DNA of 64,000 nt, taken from assembly GCA_937975235.1 (NCBI GenBank), contig CALJUZ010000064.1, forward strand, positions 9,306-73,305, given 5' to 3'. Source of the DNA: an uncultured Bacillota bacterium. Its GTDB lineage: Bacteria; Bacillota; Limnochordia; Limnochordales; ZCTH02-B6. The translations under genes and the position numbers were made by a program. Shown here in pieces: positions 2,622 through 64,000 of the stretch (position 1 is the stretch's first letter; each line of letters opens with the position of its first letter). The notes below the pieces were generated by a model. It was not told where the DNA came from and searched no databases. It saw only the letters and a program-made list of their open reading frames with translations.

Positions 2622-3992
2622 TCAGATGACCAGCGTTCCCTCCTCGGTCTGGAGCAGCTTCAGGATGCGTTCCTCGTCGCCCGTCGCCGCGTTGATGTAG
2701 ATGATGTACGGGTCGCCGTCCAGGTCGGCGGGAAACTCCCACGTCAAGACCTCTTCCAGCGTCTCGAGGGGAATGAGGGCCAAGCGTCCCCGGCCCACCG
2801 ACAAGAGCGGGCTCACGCGCGCCCGGGCCTCCTCTTCGCTCAGCGCGGGCCGGGGGATGGTGCGGTCGTGGTGCGACATCAGGTAGCCCATGGCCTCGTA
2901 GCCGACGATGTCGCCGTTGTCCAGCGCCACCGTCACTTTCACCAAATCGGGATAAATGACGACGCCCTCCTCCACCGCCGCAAAGGGGATGACAGCCCGG
3001 TGGCCCGCGGCCGACGCCCACGTGGGCTCCATGGCGGCCAGGCCCCGTTGGGCCAGAAACTGCCGGGCCTTCTGCACGGCTTCGTCGAGGGACAGATTGG
3101 TCTCGCCGACGGGCCGCGCGTCCAGCATCCAGACGACGTGGCCGCCCTTTTTCGACACGTCCACGTCGATGAGCCCGGCGCGCCGCATGGCCCGCACGCG
3201 GAAGGCGGGCACGGGCCCCTCGACTTCGCCCGGGGCCGTCAAGTCGTCCTCGCTCAGGTCGTAGGGCAAGAACTCCCGGGCGACGCGCCGCGCCTCGTCC
3301 GCGTCGATGTCCGGACCCGCGAGCCCTTTCGGCTCCCGCTGCAGCACGTGATCCGAAAACGGGCCGTCGTAGATGAGCGTCGGGAACTCGGCCAGCTGCA
3401 GCTCCAGCCGTTGAAAGCCGTCGCGAAAGGCCCCGGGGCCGTCGTCCAGCCGGCCGCGGGCCAGGCGCTGCAGCTCGCTCCAGCTCATGGCGCCGTGGGC
3501 CGCGTCGTCCAGGACGCCGTGAAGCTGCTCGGCGATGACGCGCACCTGCCGCTGCAGCTCGCCCAAAGTGCGCCAGTCGTCCTCGGACACCGCGTCGCCC
3601 CGCGCGGTTTTTCGGGCCAGCATGTAGGCGTAGTCACCCGCCTGGGTCAGCAGCTGGGACGTGCGCATCAGGGCGCCCGCGCCCAGGGGCAGCTGGTTCA
3701 GGCTGGCCTGCGCCCCGAAGGACTGCCGCCAGACGTCGGTCAAGTACATGACTCGCCTGGGGTCCGAACCGGAGACCAGGCTTTTCGCCATCAGCAGCTC
3801 CGTCTGCTCCACCTGCGCGATGAGCTCGAACAACGCCCGCTGAAACTGGGCCGTGTACATCCGCTCGGCCCGCACCCGCTCCGTCCGCTCCAGGGCGCCC
3901 CAGACGAGCGCGGCCAGAAGCAGCACCGACAGCAGGGCGGCCACGGCGCGCCTGCGGCGTTCCGTCCCGGTCCACTGTTGCGCTTCCCTCAC
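2622..3992 (-). CDS. ypeB: germination protein YpeB
   Basis: 456 aa with an N-terminal membrane anchor, a YpeB-type N-domain (MYLTDVWRQSFGAQASLNQLP...) and C-terminal PepSY-like repeats. Lies directly downstream of sleB, as in Bacilli and Clostridia. Confidence 0.9.
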   Translation of the reverse strand: MREAQQWTGTERRRRAVAALLSVLLLAALVWGALERTERVRAERMYTAQFQRALFELIAQVEQTELLMAKSLVSGSDPRRVMYLTDVWRQSFGAQASLNQLPLGAGALMRTSQLLTQAGDYAYMLARKTARGDAVSEDDWRTLGELQRQVRVIAEQLHGVLDDAAHGAMSWSELQRLARGRLDDGPGAFRDGFQRLELQLAEFPTLIYDGPFSDHVLQREPKGLAGPDIDADEARRVAREFLPYDLSEDDLTAPGEVEGPVPAFRVRAMRRAGLIDVDVSKKGGHVVWMLDARPVGETNLSLDEAVQKARQFLAQRGLAAMEPTWASAAGHRAVIPFAAVEEGVVIYPDLVKVTVALDNGDIVGYEAMGYLMSHHDRTIPRPALSEEEARARVSPLLSVGRGRLALIPLETLEEVLTWEFPADLDGDPYIIYINAATGDEERILKLLQTEEGTLVI

Positions 3993-29475: not shown

Positions 29476-29952
29476 TCACTCCCGCAAATCCTGCAGGCGG
29501 CGCATGACCTCCAGCACTTCCGCCGGCGGCGCCTCGCCGGCCGCGGTGCGCACGACCACCAGCACCGCGTCGTCCCCGGCCAGCGTGCCCAAAACGCCCG
29601 GCGGCTGCCACTCGTCCAGCGCCGCGGCCACCGCGTTGGCGCGGCCGGAGAGGGTGCGCAAGAAAATAAGGTGGCCGGCGGGCTCGATGTCCAGCACGTA
29701 GTCGCGGAACGCCCTCCGGGCCCGCTCCAGCGCGTCCTGCGGCTCCACGTCCAGGGCCGCCGGCCGCGCATAGCGAGGCCGCCCGCCGGCGCTGCGCACT
29801 TTGATCAGGCCCAGCTGCGCGATGTCGCGCGATACCGTGGCCTGGGTCACGTCGAACCCTTCCCGCTGCAGCAGCGCCAACAGCTCCGCCTGCGTCTCCA
29901 CGGGCCGCTCCTCGATGATGCGCAGTATCGCGGCGTGCCGGCGTTGTCTCAT
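29476..29952 (-). CDS. argR: arginine repressor
   Basis: From ATG 29952: MRQRRHAAILRIIEERPVETQAELLALLQREGFDVTQATVSRDIAQLGL...GTLAGDD. ATGA overlap with the nadK stop. Confidence 0.9.
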   Translation of the reverse strand: MRQRRHAAILRIIEERPVETQAELLALLQREGFDVTQATVSRDIAQLGLIKVRSAGGRPRYARPAALDVEPQDALERARRAFRDYVLDIEPAGHLIFLRTLSGRANAVAAALDEWQPPGVLGTLAGDDAVLVVVRTAAGEAPPAEVLEVMRRLQDLRE

Positions 29953-30836
29953 GCGTCCAGCCCGCCCTCCCCCGGAATGGTGTACGCTTTCCCCTGGCCC
30001 AGCCGCTCCCGGAGCTCGCGGTAGAAGCGGTCCCGGCCGAAGCGCACCAGACGCACCGGACGAGGCGCCCGCCCGATGCGCACCACGTCGCCGGGCGCGA
30101 TGCTGAAGCCCACCTGCCCGTCCACCGTGACCATAATGTCGGCGTGGGAGGCCGTCACCCGCACCACCACTTCCTCGTCGGCGTGCACCACCACCGAGCG
30201 CGACGCCAAGGCGTGGGGACAGATGGGTGTCAGGATGACCGCGTCGATGCGCGGATTGACGATGGGACCGCCCGCGGACAAGGAATATCCCGTGGAGCCG
30301 GTAGGGGTGGCCACGATCAGGCCGTCGCCGGAGTAGTCGAAGACCAGCTCGCCGTCGACGGTGGCCTCGATGCGGATGATGCGGGCGAAGGTGCCCCGGT
30401 TGATGACGACGTCGTTGAGCGCCACGACGTCGGCAAACACCTCGCCCTTCCGGGTGAGCCGGGCTTTCAGCATCATGCGCTCTTCGACGTGAAACTCCCC
30501 GGCGAGAAGGCGCGTCAGCGCCTTCTCCAGCGCGTCGTGATCCACCTCGGTCAGAAACCCCAGCCGGCCTACGTTGACGCACAGAAGCGGCGTCGTGTCC
30601 TGCGTCAGCGCGCGCGCCGCCCGCAGCACCGCGCCGTCGCCGCCGACGACGACGACCGCGTCCAGATCTTCCCACGACGGAGCGGGCAGGGCCAGGTCGT
30701 CCCGTCCCAGCGCGCGAGCGGCTTCGGGCTCCAAGACGACGGCCGCGCCCGCTTCCTCCAAATAGTTCAGCGCCTGGCGGCCCACTTCCAGCGCCTTGCC
30801 CTTCCCTGTGTGAGGCATGAGTCCGAATCGCTTCAC
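29949..30836 (-). CDS. nadK: NAD(+) kinase
   Basis: 295 aa with GGDG motif (VVVGGDGAVLRAAR) and NDVVI...TPTGSTGYSLSAGGPI. GTG start. Confidence 0.9.
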   Translation of the reverse strand: MKRFGLMPHTGKGKALEVGRQALNYLEEAGAAVVLEPEAARALGRDDLALPAPSWEDLDAVVVVGGDGAVLRAARALTQDTTPLLCVNVGRLGFLTEVDHDALEKALTRLLAGEFHVEERMMLKARLTRKGEVFADVVALNDVVINRGTFARIIRIEATVDGELVFDYSGDGLIVATPTGSTGYSLSAGGPIVNPRIDAVILTPICPHALASRSVVVHADEEVVVRVTASHADIMVTVDGQVGFSIAPGDVVRIGRAPRPVRLVRFGRDRFYRELRERLGQGKAYTIPGEGGLDA

Positions 30837-30983
30837 CGAGTGCAGAGTTATCGGCCCCCGTCATCGGTACGGTAACGTATCATTTGCCGCCGCGGGACGG
30901 ATTTTCCTTCTTAAGCGCGGCTTCCCCGCCGGGAGCCGCCTGGGCTTCCGCCGCCCGGCCGGAAAACGCGGGCCCGGACCGGC

Positions 30984-31808
30984 TCACGTCGTGGGCAGAT
31001 CCGCCTCGTGGGCCGCGGCCACCGTGTCCGCGACGATGCGCTCCCACGCCGCCGGGTCCCGGGCCGGAGCGCTCCGCCGCGCGCCGGCCAAATACTCGAT
31101 GTTGCCTTCGGGCCCACGCAGCGGCGAAAAGGTGAGATGCTCGGGCTCCAGGCCGCTGTCGCGCAGCGCGGCCAGGACGCGGAGGACGACCTCGCGGTGA
31201 ACGTCCGGATCTTTCACGACGCCCCGCGGCCCCACCCGTTCGGGACCGGCCTCGAACTGAGGTTTGATCAGGCAGATCAGTCGCCCGTCCGTCTTCATCA
31301 GGGGAACCACCGCGGGGAAAATTTTCGCCAAGGAGATGAACGACACGTCGATGACGACCCAGTCCACGGGCTCGGGCAAATCGCCGGGCTTCAGGTGGCG
31401 GGCGTTGGTACGCTCCATGACCACGACGCGCGGGTCGTTGCGCAGCCCCCAGTGCAGCTGTCCGTAGCCGACGTCCACGGCGTACACGCGCCGGGCGCCG
31501 TGCTGGAGCAGGCAGTCGGTGAAGCCGCCGGTGGACGCGCCCACGTCCAGCGCGACGGCGCCCGCGGGATCCCAGCCGAACGCGCGCAGCGCCTTCTCCA
31601 GCTTGAGCCCGCCGCGGCTGACGTACGGCATCGGATCGCCCCGCACCTCCACCCGGGCGTTCACCGGCACCATGGTGCCGGCCTTGTCCACCCGCCGGCC
31701 GTCCACGTACACGAGCCCGGCCATGATGGCCCCCAGCGCCTGCCGCCGGCTGGCGAAGGCTCCCCGTTCCACCAACAGAAGGTCGAGACGGCGCCGCTGC
31801 TCGCTCAC
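30984..31808 (-). CDS. tlyA: TlyA family rRNA (cytidine-2'-O)-methyltransferase
   Basis: From GTG 31808: S4-like N terminus (RLDLLLVERGAFASRRQALGAIMAGLVYVDG) and FtsJ-like SAM domain (LDVGASTGGFTDCLLQHGA). GTGA overlap with the upstream membrane-protein gene. Confidence 0.9.
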   Translation of the reverse strand: MSEQRRRLDLLLVERGAFASRRQALGAIMAGLVYVDGRRVDKAGTMVPVNARVEVRGDPMPYVSRGGLKLEKALRAFGWDPAGAVALDVGASTGGFTDCLLQHGARRVYAVDVGYGQLHWGLRNDPRVVVMERTNARHLKPGDLPEPVDWVVIDVSFISLAKIFPAVVPLMKTDGRLICLIKPQFEAGPERVGPRGVVKDPDVHREVVLRVLAALRDSGLEPEHLTFSPLRGPEGNIEYLAGARRSAPARDPAAWERIVADTVAAAHEADLPTT

Positions 31809-32473
31809 GACGTTCGGCCTCGCTTTGCGTTGTTGTTGCTTTGTCCCCGACGGGCGTTGCCGTTTTTTCGCCCGCGGCCGCGACGGGAACCGCCGGCGAA
31901 GCGGATGCCCGTCACCCGGCCGATCACGTGCAGGACCCGCCCCGACCACAGGACGATTTCGGTGCGCCGCTCAAACGCGATCGTCTTGGCGTACGCTTTC
32001 CCTCCCACGGCCAACGCGGCGATGACCGCGATGAGAAGAGTCGACAAGATCGTTTCGTTGAGGCCGGGATACGCGGTGACCAGGCGGAACACGATGGTGG
32101 CGCCGATGGCGCCGCTGAGGGTTCCCACCACGTCGCCCACGATGTCCAGCGTGAAGCTGGCCACCTGGTCTTGATGGCGCACCAGCCAGCTGGCTTCCCG
32201 CGCGCCGGGAACGCGCTGCACCGCCATCGCGTGGAACGGATCCTCGCGCGACGCGGTGGTGGCAACGCCAATCAGGTCAAACAGGATGCCGACGGCGACA
32301 ATGACCAGCAGAAGAAGAAAACTCGTGAAAAGGTCAAGCCAGGCCAGAAGACCGGTGCTCAGAAGGGAGAAGACGATGGAAGTGAAAAACGTCAGTATGC
32401 CGACGCGCCAAAAGCGACTCAGTTTTGCTGTCCACCGTCCGTGTGAAAAAAGAGGTGGCAAGTGGCCACGCAC
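31805..32473 (-). CDS. oapA: four-TM membrane protein with basic C-terminal tail, OapA-like (OLE-associated protein A candidate)
   Basis: Four hydrophobic helices (ILTFFTSIVFSLLSTGLLAWL / FLLLLVIVAVGILFDLIGVA / VASFTLDIVGDVVGTLSGAIGATIVF / ILSTLLIAVIAALAVGG) and an Arg/Gly/Lys/Asn-rich tail. Sits directly 3' of the structured non-coding region. Start unresolved (GTG 32473, TTG 32461 or CTG 32422). Confidence 0.6.
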   Translation of the reverse strand: MRGHLPPLFSHGRWTAKLSRFWRVGILTFFTSIVFSLLSTGLLAWLDLFTSFLLLLVIVAVGILFDLIGVATTASREDPFHAMAVQRVPGAREASWLVRHQDQVASFTLDIVGDVVGTLSGAIGATIVFRLVTAYPGLNETILSTLLIAVIAALAVGGKAYAKTIAFERRTEIVLWSGRVLHVIGRVTGIRFAGGSRRGRGRKNGNARRGQSNNNAKRGRTS

Positions 32474-32474
32474 C

Positions 32475-33081
32475 GGGTAAACCTTGTGGCTTAAGGTCCA
32501 GCAGGATTTCCCAACGCTCCTCCGCAGCGTCGCCGCCGCGGCGGTTTCCCCTTTCCGAGCGCTCTGCCGCGTCACCGCCGGCAGGGCTGGATTACCACTG
32601 AGCACACACCCTAATCCCCGGCGCGCTACCCCGCAGGGAACAGCCTAGGAGTTTTCCTCGGCGACGCTCATCGTCCCCTAGCCTCTTTTGCGCAACAATC
32701 TTCGAGCGGCAACGAACCCGCGGCCGTGGCCTTTGGCCCGCGGGTCTGAACCCGCTCTCCCGACTGCTCCGCTCAAGGCAGGCTACGCTGCACCCAACGC
32801 TCCCCGCACGGCGTGCGTGTCGCATCGAGCTGCAGGTTCTTCCCAAGTCGTAGCGACGGGGCCTCACGACCCGGCCGCCACGCACTTGGGTCTCCGCGGA
32901 AGCAGGGTCAACGCCTGCATGCCGTTGCAGATCGCCCCACTTCCTTAACCCCCAGCAGCAACCCCCGACTGGGCGTCGGGAGCCACCACCAGAGACTTCA
33001 TCGATGTGCCCTGTCCGGATTTTTAGGCCCGGCTTCGGAGACGCGAGCACCGACTAGGATACTGCGCCACTTGCCCTTCGC
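32475..33081 (-). ncRNA. ole: large structured non-coding RNA, OLE (ornate, large, extremophilic) RNA candidate
   Basis: About 600 nt between ispA and the OapA-like gene with no credible ORF. Composition is less GC-rich than the flanks, and many local and nested complementary segments are present. Size, strand and ispA / membrane protein / tlyA-nadK-recN context match what is known for OLE RNA. Ends are approximate. Confidence 0.6.
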
Positions 33082-33087
33082 AACGCC

Positions 33088-33117
33088 ATTGTATCATACC
33101 GCCGCCCCGCGCCGCAA
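33088..33117 (-). promoter_or_regulatory. candidate sigma-A promoter (extended -10) in front of the OLE-like RNA
   Basis: Minus strand reads TTGCGG - 18 nt - TACAAT, with TGa immediately 5' of the -10 (TGATACAAT). A GCGCCGC-GTT-GCGGCGC hairpin overlaps the -35, just after the ispA stop. Confidence 0.4.
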
Positions 33118-33128
33118 CGCGGCGCCCC

Positions 33129-34052
33129 TCACCGGTCTCTGCCGACGGCGAAGTCGGCCAGAGCCGCCAGCACGTCCCGCCCGGGAGACGGCAGTCCGGC
33201 CACGGCCTCCCGGGCCGCGGCCGCGGCCTGCCGCGCCATCCTGCGGGCCTCCTCGAGCCCCACCAGCGCCGGATACGTGGCCTTGGCCCTTTCGCTGTCC
33301 CGGCCCGGCCGTTTGCCCAGCGCCTGCGGGTCGCCGGTGACGTCCAAAATGTCGTCGGCGATTTGAAACGCCAGCCCGAACGCGTCCGCGTAGTCGGTCA
33401 GCGACTGCAGCGTCTCCGGCCCCGCACCGGCCAGGAGCGCCCCGCAGCGCACGCACGCCCGGAACAGCGCGCCGGTTTTGCGCAGGTGGATGGAACGCAG
33501 GTGATCCACCGTGACGTCGGTGCGGCCTTCGGCCTCCAGGTCGGCCACCTGGCCGCCGATGAGGCCCATGGTGCCCGCCGCGTCGGTCAGCTCTTCAATG
33601 ACGGCCAGGGCCGTCCCGGCCGAAACGCCCGCCAGGCGCGGCAGGCGCCCCAGCACCCAAAACGCATGCGTCAGCAGCGCGTCGCCGGCCAGCACCGCCA
33701 TGCCTTCGCCGAACACTTTGTGGGTCGTGGGCTTGCCCCGCCGCATGTCGTCGTCGTCCATGGCCGGCAAGTCATCGTGGACCAGCGAGTACGCGTGAAT
33801 CATCTCCAGCGCCGCGGCCAGCGGCAGGGCCTTCTCTTCGGCGCCGCCCGCGGCCCGGCACGCCGCCACGGCCAGCACGCCCCGCAGGCGCTTGCCGCCG
33901 CCCAGGGCGCTGTAGCGCATGGCCCGGTGGATGGTGGCGGGATCGTCCCCTTCCGGCGGCAGCAGGCTTTCCAAAGCCCGCTCCACCGCCCGGGCCTGCT
34001 CCGCCACGTACGCCATAGGATCAAACGTGGCTCGATCAAGAGATTCCGTCAT
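33129..34052 (-). CDS. ispA: polyprenyl (farnesyl/geranylgeranyl) diphosphate synthase
   Basis: From ATG 34052: both Asp-rich motifs (LVHDDLPAMDDDDMRRG and FQIADDILD). ATGA overlap with the xseB stop. Confidence 0.9.
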   Translation of the reverse strand: MTESLDRATFDPMAYVAEQARAVERALESLLPPEGDDPATIHRAMRYSALGGGKRLRGVLAVAACRAAGGAEEKALPLAAALEMIHAYSLVHDDLPAMDDDDMRRGKPTTHKVFGEGMAVLAGDALLTHAFWVLGRLPRLAGVSAGTALAVIEELTDAAGTMGLIGGQVADLEAEGRTDVTVDHLRSIHLRKTGALFRACVRCGALLAGAGPETLQSLTDYADAFGLAFQIADDILDVTGDPQALGKRPGRDSERAKATYPALVGLEEARRMARQAAAAAREAVAGLPSPGRDVLAALADFAVGRDR

Positions 34053-34372
34053 CAATGGTCGTCCGTTTCCGTGGGAAGATCGGGTTCCAGGTGGGGCGCG
34101 TCCACTTCCTCGGCGCCGTCCGGCCCTGCCACCAGCACGCGGATGCGCGCCTCGGCCTCGTCCAGCCGCCGCCGGCAAAAGCGGGCCAACGCCACGCCTT
34201 CCTCAAACAAGGCCAGCGCCTCCTCCAGCCCCGCGTCGCCCCGCTCCAGCCTGGCCACCACCTGCTCCAGCCGGGCGAAGGCCTCTTCAAAGGTCGCCGG
34301 CCCGGAGTCCGCGTCGCCCCCGGCCCCCTCGGCCGGCTCTCCGATCTCCTTCATCGTCTCGTCCGTGTTCAT
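34052..34372 (-). CDS. xseB: exodeoxyribonuclease VII small subunit
   Basis: 106 aa with FEEAFARLEQVVARLERGDAGLEEALALFEEGVALARFCRRRLDEAEARI, the XseB helical hairpin pattern. Confidence 0.9.
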   Translation of the reverse strand: MNTDETMKEIGEPAEGAGGDADSGPATFEEAFARLEQVVARLERGDAGLEEALALFEEGVALARFCRRRLDEAEARIRVLVAGPDGAEEVDAPHLEPDLPTETDDH

Positions 34373-57275: not shown

Positions 57276-58529
57276 TCAGCGGGTGCCGGCCGCGATAGTA
57301 TGCCCCGCCGGCTGCCGGATGTTGCCCCCGGCCGCGGAATCGGGCAGCTGCCGGTCGATGACGCCGCCGCCGACGACGAAGTCGCCGTCGTACCACACCA
57401 CCGCCTGCCCGGGGCTGATGGCCCGCTGGGGCTCGATGAGGCGCGTGATGATCTCGCCGTTTTCGCCCGGGTAGATGACGGCGTCAGCCGGCTCCGCATT
57501 GTAGCGGATTTTCGCCTGGACGCGCACGGGCCCGTCGATGGGGCCGGTGCTGACCCAGTTCACGTCCCGCACGGCCAGCGTCGTGCCGAACACGTCGTCC
57601 TCGGTGCCCACCACCAGCGCGTTGTTTTCCTCATCGATGGCGATGACGTACAGGCGCTCGGAGCTGCTGATGCGCAGACCTTTGCGCTGGCCCACGGTGT
57701 AGAACGCGATGCCGTCGTGGGTGCCCAGGCGCTTGCCGGTCTTGTCCACGATGGGCCCCGGCTTGTGGGCTTCGGGCCGGTACTCCCGGAGGAAGCGGCG
57801 GTAGTCGTTGTCGGGAATGAAGCAGATTTCCTGGGAGTCGGGCTTGAGCCCCACGCCCAGGCCCATCTCCAGCGCCATCCGCCGAATCTCTTCCTTCGTG
57901 TAGTCGCCGCAGGGCGTCAGCGTGCGCGCCAGCTGCTCCTGGGTCTGCCCGTAAAAGGTGTACGTCTGGTCTTTGTGCGGGTCCGCGGACTTGCGCACCA
58001 CGTAGCGGCCCCGCTGGGGATCATAGCCGATGCGGGCGTAGTGGCCCGTGGCCACGTAGTCCGCGCCCAGCTCCATGGCCTTCTGCAGCAGCATGCCGAA
58101 CTTGACCTTCTGGTTGCAGATGAGGCACGGGTTGGGCGTTTCGCCCCGCAGGTACTCCTCGACGAACACGTCAATGACCGCTTCCTGGAACGGCTCCTGG
58201 AAATTGACTACGTAGTACGGAATGCCCAGCTTGTAGGCGACGCGCCGCGCGTCCTCCACCGCCGTCAGGCTGCAGCAGCCGCTCTCGGAGCGCTCGCCGA
58301 AGGGCAAATCCGAGGGCCACAGCTGCATGGTGATGCCGATGACGTCGTAACCTTCCTCTTTGAGCAGCGCCGCCGCCACCGAGCTGTCGACGCCGCCGCT
58401 CATGGCCACGACGACGCGGATTTGGTGCTTGGGCGGCGCACCGGGCGGCAGCGGCCACCCGGGCGGCAGGTCGCGGGTCGCCTTTCCGTCCCGGCGCCAA
58501 TGGGTGTTGAGCTTCTCGTTCGGCTTCAT
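57276..58529 (-). CDS. mnmA: tRNA 2-thiouridine(34) synthase MnmA
   Basis: From ATG 58529: PP-loop VVVAMSGGVDSSVAA, GCCS, TPNPCLICNQKVKF, ATGHYAR, DQTYTFY. About 35 aa N-terminal extension, so the start is uncertain. Confidence 0.95.
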   Translation of the reverse strand: MKPNEKLNTHWRRDGKATRDLPPGWPLPPGAPPKHQIRVVVAMSGGVDSSVAAALLKEEGYDVIGITMQLWPSDLPFGERSESGCCSLTAVEDARRVAYKLGIPYYVVNFQEPFQEAVIDVFVEEYLRGETPNPCLICNQKVKFGMLLQKAMELGADYVATGHYARIGYDPQRGRYVVRKSADPHKDQTYTFYGQTQEQLARTLTPCGDYTKEEIRRMALEMGLGVGLKPDSQEICFIPDNDYRRFLREYRPEAHKPGPIVDKTGKRLGTHDGIAFYTVGQRKGLRISSSERLYVIAIDEENNALVVGTEDDVFGTTLAVRDVNWVSTGPIDGPVRVQAKIRYNAEPADAVIYPGENGEIITRLIEPQRAISPGQAVVWYDGDFVVGGGVIDRQLPDSAAGGNIRQPAGHTIAAGTR

Positions 58530-58534
58530 GGCCG

Positions 58535-59716
58535 TCACTCTCCGTGCAGGAGGCGGGCGGCCGCGGCGGCGCGCCCGCGCAGTTTCTCTATCGTCTCGGC
58601 GACGATGTCCACCACCGCCGCCACGTCTTCTTCCGTCGTGTGCCTGCCCACCGTCAGGCGCAGACCCGAGGCAGCCAGCTCCTTCGGCAGCCCGACGGCC
58701 GTCAGCACGTGGGACGGCTCCAGCGATCCGGACGTGCACGCCGAACCCGCGGACGCCGCCACGCCGGCCAGGTCCAGGTTCAGCAGCAGCGACTCGCCGT
58801 CGACGCCCGGAAAGCTGAAGTGCACGTTGTTGGGCAGCCGGCGAACGGGATGGCCGTTGAGCACGGCGCCGGGGACGCGCCGGCGGATGCCGTCGATGAG
58901 CGCATCCCGCAGCCCCTCCAGCCGCGCGGCCTCGCCGGGCCGGTGGTCCAGCGCCTTCTTCAGCGCCGCGGCCAGGCCCACGATGCCCGCCACGTTTTCC
59001 GTGCCGGCCCTGAGGCCCCGCTCCTGGCCGCCGCCGTGCAGCAGCGGCTCCAGCTTGGTGCCCGTGCGCACGTACAGAACGCCGACGCCTTTCGGCCCGT
59101 ACAGCTTGTGGGCCGACAGCGCCAGCAGGTCGCAGCCGATGTCGTCGGGCCGCACCTCCAGCAGCCCCGCAGTCTGCACCGCGTCCACCAGCAGCGGCAC
59201 GCCCCGGGCCCGGGTGATGCGGGCGATTTCTTCCACCGGCTGGATGGTCCCGATTTCGTTGTTCGCGTGCATGACGGCCACCAGCGCCGTGTCGGGCCGC
59301 AGCGCTTCGGCCACCGCGACCGGGTGCACGACGCCATACTCGTCCACGGGCACCCGCGTCACCCCGAACCCTTGCCGCTCGAGAAAGGCCGCGGAGGCCA
59401 GCACCGCCTGGTGCTCCACGGCCGAGACCACCACGTGCGCGCCCCGGCCCCGCTTCCGGGCGGCGAAGGCCGCGCCTTTGACGGCCAGGTTCAGCGCCTC
59501 GGTGCCGCCGGAGGTGAAGTACACTTCGCCGGGCTTGACGTCCAGCGCTTCGGCCACCTGCACCCGCGCGTCGTCCACGGCGGCTCGCGTCAGGCGCGCC
59601 GCGGCGTAGGGCGACGACGGGTTCCCGTACCCTTCCCGCAGCCATGGAAGCATGGCCTCCAGCACGTCCGGGTCCAGCGGCGTCGTGGCCGCGTAGTCCA
59701 TGTAAATCGTCCGCAT
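58535..59716 (-). CDS. nifS: cysteine desulfurase (NifS/IscS class)
   Basis: From ATG 59716: IYMDYAATTPLDP, FTSGGTEALN, SAHKLYGPKGVG (PLP lysine), SAGSACTSG (active Cys). Confidence 0.93.
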   Translation of the reverse strand: MRTIYMDYAATTPLDPDVLEAMLPWLREGYGNPSSPYAAARLTRAAVDDARVQVAEALDVKPGEVYFTSGGTEALNLAVKGAAFAARKRGRGAHVVVSAVEHQAVLASAAFLERQGFGVTRVPVDEYGVVHPVAVAEALRPDTALVAVMHANNEIGTIQPVEEIARITRARGVPLLVDAVQTAGLLEVRPDDIGCDLLALSAHKLYGPKGVGVLYVRTGTKLEPLLHGGGQERGLRAGTENVAGIVGLAAALKKALDHRPGEAARLEGLRDALIDGIRRRVPGAVLNGHPVRRLPNNVHFSFPGVDGESLLLNLDLAGVAASAGSACTSGSLEPSHVLTAVGLPKELAASGLRLTVGRHTTEEDVAAVVDIVAETIEKLRGRAAAAARLLHGE

Positions 59717-59757
59717 CGTGTTGGGCCACCTCCCGCGTCCGCGGCCCGGGCCTACGG

Positions 59758-60210
59758 TCAGATGTAGTACACGTACTCGCTGCGCTGGGCCCGCTCTCGT
59801 TCCGCGTGGACCAAAAGCTCCGCCACGGTCATCGAGTCCAGCAGCTCCACGATCCGGCGGTTCAGCTCCCGCCACAAAAAACGCGTGCCGTATTTGGGCA
59901 CGCAGCGGGCGTCGGTGCCCAGCGGCCCGCCGTCGTCCACCCGGATCTCCACGTCGCCCTCCAGCGCTCGGAGCACGTCGCCCACCGTCATCTGCTCCGG
60001 CGGCATGGCCAGCCGGTACCCGCCCTGGGCGCCCCGGACGCTGGTGACGAACCCCGCTTTGCGCAGCACGCCCATGAGCTGCTCCAGATAGTGCTCCGAC
60101 ACTTCCTGCCGGGCGGCAATCTGCCTGAGCGGAATCGGGTCCCGCCCGCCGTGCTGCGCCAAGTCCAGCAGGGTCCGCAGGCCGTACTCGCCCCGGGTGG
60201 AAATCCGCAT
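59758..60210 (-). CDS. cymR: Rrf2 family transcriptional regulator (CymR/IscR-like)
   Basis: MRISTRGEYGLRTLLDLAQHGG..PIPLRQIAARQEVSEHYLEQLMGVLRKAGFVTSVRGAQGGYRLA. Upstream of nifS-mnmA as in B. subtilis. Confidence 0.9.
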   Translation of the reverse strand: MRISTRGEYGLRTLLDLAQHGGRDPIPLRQIAARQEVSEHYLEQLMGVLRKAGFVTSVRGAQGGYRLAMPPEQMTVGDVLRALEGDVEIRVDDGGPLGTDARCVPKYGTRFLWRELNRRIVELLDSMTVAELLVHAERERAQRSEYVYYI

Positions 60211-60263
60211 CGCGCGTTCCTCCAGTTTGCAATTCCGACTGTTCCGGTGGACTTTGCGGACTT

Positions 60264-60292
60264 ATACTAGCACGGAACGAAGGCGCCGTCAA
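60264..60292 (-). promoter_or_regulatory. candidate sigma-A promoter of the cymR-nifS-mnmA operon, with nearby CymR-box-like sequence
   Basis: Minus strand reads TTGACG - 17 nt - TAGTAT. Downstream, TCGGAATTG (60238..60230) resembles the GGAATT core of the B. subtilis CymR box as I recall it. Confidence 0.45.
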
Positions 60293-61686
60293 CGACGGCC
60301 CGCGGCGTCGGGGACCGGGCCGGGCCCGCCGCCCGAGGCGCCGCCCCGTTCCCGCAGCCGCTCCAGGCGCCGGCGGACCGCGGCCTCCTCGCCTTGGTCG
60401 CTGGGCTCGTAAAACGTCCGGCCCGCCACGTTGTCGGGCAAATACTGCTGCGGCACGTAATGGTCCGGATAGTCGTGCGGATATTTGTATCCGGCGCCGT
60501 GGCCCAGCCGTTTCGCGCCGCGGTACGATGTGTCGCGCAAATGGATCGGCACCGGCTCCCACCGCTCGGTGCGCACCGCCTCCAGCGCCCGGTCGATGGC
60601 CAAATACGCGGCGTTGCTCTTGGGCGCCGTCGCGATGTAGATGGCCGCCTGGGCCAGGGGAATCCGGGCCTCGGGCAGTCCCACGTGCTCCACGGCCTGG
60701 GCGGCCGCCACGGCCAGGGGCAGCGCCCTCGGATCCGCGTTGCCCACGTCCTCGGCCGCATGCACGATGAGCCGCCGGGCGATGGCCCGGGGATCCTCCC
60801 CCGCCTCCAGCATCCGGGCCAGCCAGTACACCGCCGCGTCCGGATCGGAGCCCCGCATGCTCTTGATAAAGGCCGACATGGTGTCGTAGTGCGCGTCGCC
60901 GTCCCCGTCGTAGACGATGGCCCGGCTCTGCATGGCCGCCCGCACCGCCTCGGCCGTGACCACGACGGGCCCGCCCGCGGGCCGGCCCTCGATGCGGGCT
61001 TGCGCGGCGGCCACCTCCACCGCGGCCTCCAGCCCGTTCAGCGCGGCGCGCGCGTCGCCGTTGGCGCCCCGGAGCAGCTCCGCGAGGGCGTCCTCCTGCA
61101 GCTCCACGGGCCGCCGGCCCAGGCCCCGCTCCTCATCAAGCAGGGCGCGCCGAATCAGCGTGGTCAGGTGCTCGTCGCTCAAAGCCTGCAGGCGCAGAAG
61201 GCGCGCCCGGGACAGCAAGGGCGCGTTGACGGAAAAGTACGGGTTCTCCGTGGTGGCGCCGATCAAGATGACGGTGCCGTCCTCCACCGCCGGCAGCAGC
61301 GCGTCTTGCTGCGCTTTGTTGAACCGGTGGATTTCGTCGATGAAAAGAATGGTGCGCCGGCCGTGAAACCGCAGGGCGTCTTTGGCCTCTTCGATGACCT
61401 TGCGGACGTCGGCCACGCCGCTGCCCACGGCGTTCAGCTTCGCAAAGCGGGACCTGGTCGTCTGCGCGATCACTTCGGCCAGCGTCGTCTTGCCCGATCC
61501 CGGCGGGCCGAACAAGATCAGCGACGGCAGCCGATCCGACTCGATGGCCACCCGCAAGGGCCGGCCGGGGCCGATGAGTTCCTCCTGGCCCACCACCTCG
61601 TCCAGCGTGCGGGGCCGCATGCGTGTGGCCAGCGGCGCCGACGCGCGGCGCGCCTCCTCGGCCGCCGCGGCAAACAAGTCACCCAT
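60289..61686 (-). CDS. rarA: replication-associated recombination protein A (RarA/MgsA AAA+ ATPase)
   Basis: From ATG 61686: RMRPRTLDEVVGQEEL, LILFGPPGSGKTTLA, LFIDEIHRFNKAQQDALLP, GATTENP, MgsA C-terminal domain (HYD..SAF.KS.RGSDPDAA.YWLARM). Confidence 0.93.
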   Translation of the reverse strand: MGDLFAAAAEEARRASAPLATRMRPRTLDEVVGQEELIGPGRPLRVAIESDRLPSLILFGPPGSGKTTLAEVIAQTTRSRFAKLNAVGSGVADVRKVIEEAKDALRFHGRRTILFIDEIHRFNKAQQDALLPAVEDGTVILIGATTENPYFSVNAPLLSRARLLRLQALSDEHLTTLIRRALLDEERGLGRRPVELQEDALAELLRGANGDARAALNGLEAAVEVAAAQARIEGRPAGGPVVVTAEAVRAAMQSRAIVYDGDGDAHYDTMSAFIKSMRGSDPDAAVYWLARMLEAGEDPRAIARRLIVHAAEDVGNADPRALPLAVAAAQAVEHVGLPEARIPLAQAAIYIATAPKSNAAYLAIDRALEAVRTERWEPVPIHLRDTSYRGAKRLGHGAGYKYPHDYPDHYVPQQYLPDNVAGRTFYEPSDQGEEAAVRRRLERLRERGGASGGGPGPVPDAAGRR

Positions 61687-61779
61687 AGCATCCACCTCGG
61701 TTCCGCCCGTGCGCCTTCCGCGCTCCGGCCGCCGGCGTCCGCTCCGGCGCCGGCCTGGCTTTACCGCCATTATGGCACA

Positions 61780-62002
61780 AAAAAACGGGAGCGTCGCTCC
61801 CGAAGAAGTACCCCGCCATGCCGCTGAACCGACCTTAATGAACCTGCGCTCAAGCAGGTGGGTGTCCTCCTGGGCGCTTGTGAGCTTCCCCGTCAGGCGA
61901 GGCCTGCTCGCCACGCCCAGAGTCCAGACTCCCAATGTAGTAGGTGTTCGGTCATTAATAGGTCCGGTTGCATGGCGCACACAGCAGGGCATGTGTGTCC
62001 GC
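61780..62002 (-). ncRNA. ssrS: 6S RNA-like small RNA
   Basis: Lies in the 431-nt aspS-rarA gap. 5' arm CGCCAUGC-AACCGGACC-..-UUAAUGACC pairs with 3' arm GGUUCAUUAA-GGUCGGUU-..-GCAUGGCG. A large asymmetric internal bubble carries an ACCUGC/GCAGGU hairpin on its 3' side, and there is a distal CUGGGCG/CGCCCAG stem. Ends in CGGGAGC-GAC-GCUCCCG plus seven U. Confidence 0.6.
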
Positions 62003-62008
62003 AACCCG

Positions 62009-62038
62009 ATCATACCACAAGGCCCGCCCGGCCGACAA
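62009..62038 (-). promoter_or_regulatory. candidate sigma-A promoter (extended -10) of the 6S-like RNA
   Basis: Minus strand reads TTGTCG - 18 nt - TATGAT with TGg directly upstream (TGGTATGAT). Confidence 0.45.
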
Positions 62039-62070
62039 CCACCCGACCGTGGCAGATCGTGACAAACGAG

Positions 62071-62105
62071 CCGGGGCGGGGCGTCTCTCGCGCCGGCCGC
62101 CCCGG
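62071..62105 (-). terminator. GC-rich hairpin after aspS (possible terminator)
   Basis: CCGGGGCGG(CC)GGCG-loop-CGCCCCGCCCCGG on the minus strand, 13 nt after the aspS stop. Followed by CTCGTTTGTC, a weak U-tract. Confidence 0.4.
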
Positions 62106-62117
62106 CAGGCCATGCGG

Positions 62118-63913
<1,796 letters not shown>

Positions 63914-63917
<4 letters not shown>

Positions 63918-64000
63918 TTCTCGCCTCTCTTCTCCTGCAAAACGTGTACCGCTTCGTCCACGCCCACCGTTCGCTCGTCGCCCGACTCCATGTCGCGCAG
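63914..64000 (-). CDS. hisS: histidine--tRNA ligase, 3' end only
   Basis: Reverse frame reads ...LRDMESGDERTVGVDEAVHVLQEKRGEK*, the anticodon-binding-domain tail typical of HisRS. hisS-aspS synteny supports it. The gene enters from the right edge. Confidence 0.7.

Follow-up and report, generated by a model that had tools for sequence, protein, structure and literature searches.

A very probable 6S RNA gene of the 6S-1 type between aspS and rarA in a high-GC Limnochordales bacterium from compost

The DNA analysed here is a stretch of 64 kb with a G+C content of 70%, referred to as the window. Near one end of it, two protein-coding genes flank an intergenic gap:

62118..63917, minus strand: aspS, aspartyl-tRNA synthetase of 599 aa (Pfam tRNA-synt_2, 2.8e-126; GAD, 3.7e-30; tRNA_anti-codon (OB), 2.8e-19)
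60289..61686, minus strand: rarA/mgsA, AAA+ ATPase of 465 aa (Pfam MgsA_C, 1.3e-74; AAA_assoc_2, AAA and RuvB_N)

The gap is exactly 431 nt long, from the end of the aspS stop codon (62118) to the start of the rarA ATG (61686). Pfam searches together with public copies of the contig, in which hisS is present upstream of aspS, gave the gene order hisS-aspS-6S-rarA-Rrf2 regulator-cysteine desulfurase (Aminotran_5)-mnmA, where 6S stands for the element in the gap that is the subject of this study. This order agrees with that of the Bacillus region hisS-aspS...rarA-cymR-iscS-mnmA.

The window is nearly identical to contigs of several public compost-type datasets (L081-L084; 4-11 mismatches in 6.7 kb). 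When compared to contig QGSR01000034.1 (GCA_003387805.1), 4 of the 6712 overlapping positions differ, and a 421-nt intergenic segment is identical in two of four public contigs, including this one. GCA_003387805.1 is the MAG ZC3RG10, which was obtained from thermophilic zoo compost and belongs to family ZCTH02-B6 of the order Limnochordales (PMC8434746). By exact protein match, the 465-aa RarA was found on at least 22 public contigs. The exact protein has entries in 58 blocks of the collection, and hence the organism is met repeatedly in different samples. An exact scan with a 35-nt stretch covering the 3′ bubble and P2 region of the RNA described below gave no match in the one-genome-per-species GTDB contigs, and the species seems to be absent from that collection.

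The whole 64-kb window was scanned against Rfam 15 at gathering thresholds, which gave two matches in total. One of these is RF00013 (6S/SsrS) at 61993..61806 on the minus strand, in the gap between aspS and rarA. The initial annotation had read this gap as the ssrS gene of the organism and had proposed a search with RF00013; the score of 104 bits is well over the gathering score of 46.4 (E = 7e-20). The match covers positions 1-187 of the 187 positions of the model and is full-length, with a core of 188 nt. The match is single in the window, as no second 6S-like element was found elsewhere in the 64 kb at E <= 0.05. Permissive Rfam scans of 58000-64000 and of the whole window showed no competing RNA family at the 6S locus, and no riboswitch, T-box or leader family scored even at E <= 0.05. 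A snoRNA match in 58000-64000 was at chance level (17 bits compared to a threshold of 55, E = 0.64) and was ignored.

Elsewhere in the window, a full-length OLE (Ornate Large Extremophilic) RNA is located at 32446-33086 on the minus strand (RF01071, 445 bits, E = 2e-127). Its surroundings (30984-34178) consist of a polyprenyl synthetase (ispA-like) ORF at 33129-34178 on one side and two downstream ORFs on the other, a 115-aa ORF at 31924-32271 without Pfam match, which is a putative oapA-like partner, and an FtsJ/S4 (tlyA-like) ORF at 30984-31949. A further ORF of 462 aa (29476-30864, minus strand) has arginine-repressor domains only in residues 306-442. The actual argR gene probably covers far less than this mechanically derived ORF, which would be over-extended upstream. 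No tRNAs were found within the 64-kb window.

The 188-nt core has a minimum free energy (MFE) of -86.1 kcal/mol, compared to -68.8 +/- 4.3 kcal/mol for dinucleotide shuffles (z = -4.0; 0 of 200 shuffles were as good). When the Rfam consensus structure was mapped onto the core, 47 of its 50 pairs were canonical. The core folds as a rod, in which a closing stem is followed by the P2 helix, a central bubble with a small hairpin in its 3′ strand, and a terminal stem:

61975..61992, minus strand: closing stem, 5′ strand (A/UGCCCUGCUGUGU.GCG), on which Rfam consensus and MFE fold agree
61808..61825, minus strand: closing stem, 3′ strand (CGGCAUGGCGGGGUA), on which both again agree
61958-61950, minus strand: P2 helix, 5′ strand UUAAUGACC, paired with GGUUCAUUAA in Rfam consensus and MFE fold
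61844-61835, minus strand: P2 helix, 3′ strand GGUUCAUUAA, in Rfam consensus and MFE fold
61934..61949, minus strand: central bubble, 5′ strand GAACACCUACUACAUU, 16 nt unpaired in the Rfam consensus
61859-61842, minus strand: small hairpin of the 3′ bubble strand, ACCUGC (61859-61854)-UUGAGC-GCAGGU (61847-61842), in MFE and centroid folds
61866..61933, minus strand: terminal (apical) stem, with GGGAGUCUGG/..GGAGGACACCC, CUGGGCG/CGCCCAG and an apical GGCCUCGCCUGACGGGG hairpin

The comparison with the 6S consensus that had been proposed for this fold thus found the closing stem, the central bubble and the terminal stem all present. In the consensus mapped onto the sequence, CCCUGCUGUGU.GCG of the closing stem pairs with CGGCAUGGCGGGG, and the P2 helix closes the central bubble at its closing-stem side. 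The 5′ bubble strand gains a few weak pairs in the MFE fold and is mostly open in the centroid. Because the MFE fold partly closes it, the open bubble is based on the family consensus and the centroid and not on thermodynamics alone.

All sequence motifs quoted in the initial annotation were found on the minus strand where it had placed them, among them the helix motifs CGCCAUGC (61977-61970), GCAUGGCG (61821-61814), AACCGGACC (61969-61961) and GGUCGGUU (61834-61827). The distal stem that it had described, CUGGGCG (61920-61914) with CGCCCAG (61876-61870), is part of the terminal stem. Its proposal of a long interrupted helix can be kept in part: the motifs are present and the P2 helix UUAAUGACC/GGUUCAUUAA is in the fold, but the pairing CGCCAUGC/GCAUGGCG lies outside the conserved fold. 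This helix was rejected, as it is found in neither the MFE fold nor the Rfam consensus; in both of these the 3′ strand GCAUGGCGGGG pairs instead with CCCUGCUGUGU (about 61989-61979), further 5′.

The window RNA was aligned with six RF00013 homologues from rarA loci (seven sequences) using MAFFT, blind to structure. The RNAalifold consensus of this alignment contained 44 pairs, 23 of them with compensatory changes. For a recount, a small alternative hairpin of this consensus was swapped for the P2 helix, giving a structure of 47 pairs. In this structure 25 pairs were changed on both sides, compared to 11.3 +/- 2.3 in shuffles (0 of 500 reached 25) and 3-10 in slid registers. Cells forming a standard pair amounted to 88.5%, compared to 78.1 +/- 1.4% in shuffles and 38.6-52.2% in slid registers. 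Compensatory changes were found in the closing stem (helix 1; 5 of 14 pairs, 91.8% of cells paired) and in the terminal stem (helices 3-6; 14 of 21 pairs). The two P2 column pairs 38/185 and 39/184 are A-U in the window and U-A in relatives. The small hairpin of the 3′ bubble strand (helix 7; 2 of 5 pairs compensatory, 90.9% paired), which had been suggested from the window sequence, is present in the predicted folds and covaries in relatives. The 6S fold is maintained by compensatory substitutions in the six relatives.

A template for product-RNA synthesis was predicted by homology to B. subtilis 6S-1:

61959-61946, minus strand: predicted product-RNA template AUUAAUGACCGAAC, RNA nt 35-48

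The predicted product RNA is 5′-GUUCGGUCAUUAAU-3′, which would initiate opposite C61946. For B. subtilis 6S-1, a 14-mer product RNA has been determined experimentally, 5′-GUUCGGUCAAAACU-3′ (PMC10578484). This product RNA implies that B. subtilis 6S-1 has the template AGUUUUGACCGAAC where its 5′ bubble strand meets P2, and AUUAAUGACCGAAC sits at the same structural position; the comparison uses the product RNA as published, together with the Rfam model. The first 9 nt of GUUCGGUCAUUAAU are identical to those of GUUCGGUCAAAACU, with a G start and GG at positions 5/6. GG at product-RNA positions 5/6 is conserved according to a survey of LAB (PMC8414754). For the duplex of the predicted 14-mer with its template, -18.6 kcal/mol was predicted. 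In a fold with the template masked, P2 was lost and the rest remained unchanged, with no clear helix for a collapse of the central bubble in this thermodynamic prediction alone.

Two signals for transcription flank the core:

62038..62009, minus strand: sigma-70/sigma-A-type promoter-like site with extended -10, TTGTCG-18-TG-g-TATGAT, 9/12 hexamer matches
61802..61779, minus strand: intrinsic terminator, CGGGAGC (61802-61796)-GAC-GCUCCCG (61792-61786) followed by U7 (61785-61779)

A consensus scan of 61600-62200 found exactly one promoter-like site, with a weak -35 hexamer (TTGTCG) and a spacer of 18 nt, compared to an average of 0.0 in shuffles of the region. It also found exactly one terminator-like site (7 pairs, 6 of them G-C), compared to 0.3 in shuffles. 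Both are those that the initial annotation had pointed out, and each is the sole site of its kind in this region. When the 225-nt transcript was folded, the terminator formed a separate hairpin and the remainder folded as in the 188-nt core. Because the -10 hexamer ends at 62009, its spacing places the predicted start near G62002, some 9-11 nt ahead of the closing stem. From the promoter-like and terminator signals together, the primary transcript is predicted to be about 224 nt long and to run from 62002 to the end of the U-tract at 61779, and its ends are possibly trimmed to a mature RNA of ~190 nt. For B. subtilis 6S-1, a longer precursor is matured at its 5′ end by RNase J1, and 3′ trimming is documented as well (PMC10578484).

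Such 5′ maturation would also fit a different origin of the same RNA. It could be made mainly by processing of read-through from hisS-aspS, in which case the promoter-like site would be incidental and the terminator at 61802-61779 would end both RNAs. The consensus scan of 61600-62200 found no terminator-like site in the stretch from the aspS stop (62118) to the 6S core, and the single terminator may serve the hisS-aspS operon too. However, the closing stem is preceded at some 7-16 nt by the extended -10 promoter-like site, which shuffles do not reproduce, and LAB 6S genes are reported to be monocistronic with their own promoter (PMC8414754). We consider mainly processed read-through to be unlikely; it bears on how the RNA is made and not on its identity.

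The 6S gene and rarA are co-oriented, with 119 nt between the 6S core and rarA and 92 nt between the U-tract (61779) and the rarA ATG (61686). In B. subtilis, bsrA (6S-1) is located in the aspS-yrvM region (work from 2002 cited in PMC10578484), and rarA has been reported in the vicinity of the 6S locus for every LAB family and also for B. subtilis 6S-1 (PMC8414754). The aspS...rarA neighbourhood of bsrA, which the initial annotation had named, agrees with both of these reports. We collected RarA-encoding loci from one-genome-per-species contigs and scanned all 80 with Rfam. The best RarA matches among them are 48-60% identical, so that they are informative on synteny and are not close relatives. 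RF00013 was found upstream of rarA on the same strand in 9 of the 80 loci:

L006, Bacillota MAG: RF00013, 102 bits, aspS just upstream of 6S
L009, Alicyclobacillus herbarius: RF00013, 85 bits, aspS just upstream of 6S
L015, A. pomorum: RF00013, 75 bits, aspS just upstream of 6S
L001 and L005, MAGs: RF00013 match upstream of rarA, same strand
L003:739-3001, Thermoanaerobacterales MAG: 6S directly after aspS, about 1.9 kb upstream of rarA
L029:128-280, Omnitrophota MAG: RF00013, with rarA at 430
L028:2670-2830, Endomicrobiaceae MAG: RF00013, with rarA at 3001
L040:254-435, Nitrospirota MAG: RF00013, with rarA at 956

The arrangement aspS-6S-rarA of the window is thus also present in L009, L015 and L006, and the arrangement known from Bacillus extends to a deep Bacillota lineage, the Limnochordales. 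Beyond the window, the distance from 6S to rarA is 26-520 nt in eight loci, with L003 as the exception. In L003, three small genes (encoding a CsoR-type metal-sensing repressor, RseC/MucC and DUF3048) lie between 6S and rarA. Because these three genes are inserted before rarA, the aspS-6S junction is the more stable half of the synteny in this locus. In the Omnitrophota, Endomicrobiaceae and Nitrospirota MAGs, 6S shares the strand of rarA and precedes it by 150-520 nt. Since 9 of 80 far exceeds the chance placement of a single-copy gene, the linkage of 6S and rarA seems to reach beyond Bacillota.

In the window, the scan gave no consensus promoter in 61600-61780 that could serve rarA separately. 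Because no consensus promoter is present between the 6S terminator and rarA, read-through or a promoter that departs from the consensus may be needed for the expression of rarA. The recurrent position of 6S directly upstream of rarA on the same strand, in the window and in eight loci with 6S within about 520 nt (Bacillota, Nitrospirota, Omnitrophota, Endomicrobiaceae), could reflect a functional coupling, for instance a regulated read-through of the 6S terminator that expresses rarA. We regard this as quite unlikely. If true, a replication-restart ATPase would be tied to the cycle of RNA polymerase sequestration, and one terminator here would also end the hisS-aspS operon.

A further reading is that the element acts in cis instead of in trans, as a leader or attenuator of rarA in which the structured RNA and the terminator control read-through into rarA. 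The shared strand, the short distance of 92 nt from the U-tract to the rarA ATG and the lack of a separate consensus rarA promoter in 61600-61780 would fit this, as would the eight other loci of several phyla in which 6S is 26-520 nt upstream of rarA (about 1.9 kb in L003). On the other hand, the covariance model identifies the element as a full-length 6S RNA, no leader family scores, and 6S and rarA are ordered or oriented differently in LAB and in B. subtilis (PMC8414754). Because of these differences, a role in cis cannot be the conserved function. We therefore consider a cis-acting leader very improbable, whereas some read-through of the terminator into rarA may occur as a side effect.

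That the region is coding, as an N-terminal extension of RarA (574-aa ORF, 60289..62013) or as a shadow ORF, with a fold incidental to 70% GC, is hardly conceivable. Upstream of its start, the rarA frame continues without a stop as far as an ATG at 62013, and long plus-strand ORFs are present at 61382..62062 and 61858..62424, but the 109-aa extension, a 52-aa minus-strand ORF and the two plus-strand shadow ORFs matched nothing in Pfam at E <= 0.1. In addition, the alignments of RarA homologues begin at residue 1-3 of the 465-aa protein, and gene callers chose this length on four public contigs. The ATG at 62013 falls within the -10 hexamer, DNA of 70% GC is expected to contain long spurious ORFs, and the covariation keeps base pairs and not codons. 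The earlier view that the gap has no credible ORF therefore holds, with the caveat that the rarA frame runs open, without Pfam match, through the 6S gene to 62013. This open stretch covers 327 nt upstream of the real start (61687-62013, minus strand) and spans the whole 6S gene. It is an annotation trap, since gene calling could wrongly turn the frame into a protein of 574 aa that overlaps the 6S gene.

Taken together, the element in the aspS-rarA gap is almost certainly the 6S RNA gene (ssrS, or bsrA-type 6S-1) of this high-GC thermophilic Limnochordales member of the Bacillota, as judged from its sequence. The full-length RF00013 match, the fold, the covariation and the synteny all support the initial reading of the gap as ssrS. 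The 6S-1 type is favoured over 6S-2 or Ms1 because of the synteny and the G-initiated template. The gene is a canonical, textbook representative of the Bacillus 6S-1 type, and the identification is correct but ordinary, as this kind is already known. Its main value lies in a correct annotation, with little beyond that: an RNA of the canonical 6S-1 type, whose product RNA can be predicted, is now placed in an uncultured Limnochordales thermophile of compost with 70% GC. As the compost source of the near-identical MAG has metatranscriptomes (PMC8434746), the RNA could act as a marker in such existing datasets.

From the known mechanism of the family, we infer that the predicted 6S transcript is expressed and that the candidate RNA binds and inhibits the sigma-A RNA polymerase holoenzyme. 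The transcript of ~224 nt, which would start near 62002 and end at the U-tract (61779), would mimic an open promoter with its open central bubble flanked by helices, and would thereby occupy the active site of the holoenzyme. 6S RNAs, which are rods of about 180-200 nt, are typically stable and abundant, and their level rises towards stationary phase. Accumulation of the 6S RNA would then damp transcription. Upon a nutrient upshift, the 5′ bubble strand would serve the polymerase as template, with initiation opposite C61946, and the short product RNA (GUUCGGUCAUUAAU) would unwind P2, upon which the 6S RNA would refold and the enzyme would be released.

The closest known counterpart in these comparisons is 6S-1 (bsrA) of B. 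subtilis. Both RNAs belong to RF00013 and form a rod with closing stem, P2, bubble and terminal stem. In both, the 3′ bubble strand carries a small pre-formed hairpin, which has been described for the free B. subtilis 6S-1 RNA (PMC8876501). Their product-RNA templates are nearly identical, with GUUCGGUCAUUAAU predicted here and GUUCGGUCAAAACU determined experimentally in B. subtilis, and both genes are located immediately downstream of aspS and near rarA. They differ in that the host of the window RNA is a Limnochordales bacterium with 70% GC and its helices are G+C-rich. In B. subtilis, yrvM lies in between and rarA reportedly points the other way (PMC8414754), whereas in the window rarA follows directly and is co-oriented. 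Moreover, the window RNA is without an obvious helix for the collapse of the central bubble in thermodynamic prediction.

The 6S RNAs of the Lactobacillales share with the window RNA a 6S-1-like fold, the linkage to rarA, an own promoter and a rho-independent terminator, as well as a conserved start of the product RNA with GG at positions 4-6 (PMC8414754). In Lactobacillales, rarA is upstream and uspA downstream of 6S, whereas in the window aspS is upstream and rarA downstream. The genomic context of E. coli 6S is ssrS-ygfA. E. coli 6S (ssrS) belongs to the same family and likewise acts by open-promoter mimicry and product-RNA-driven release (PMC8876501). RNAs of the E. coli type have an unstructured 3′ bubble strand, in which a 9-bp hairpin forms only after P2 unwinding (PMC8876501), whereas the window RNA, with its pre-formed hairpin of 6 bp, resembles B. 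subtilis 6S-1. B. subtilis 6S-2 (bsrB) and actinobacterial Ms1 are also polymerase-binding, rod-like RNAs of about the same size. However, 6S-2 sits at another locus, and Ms1 binds the core polymerase and represents a separate family (PMC9130861).
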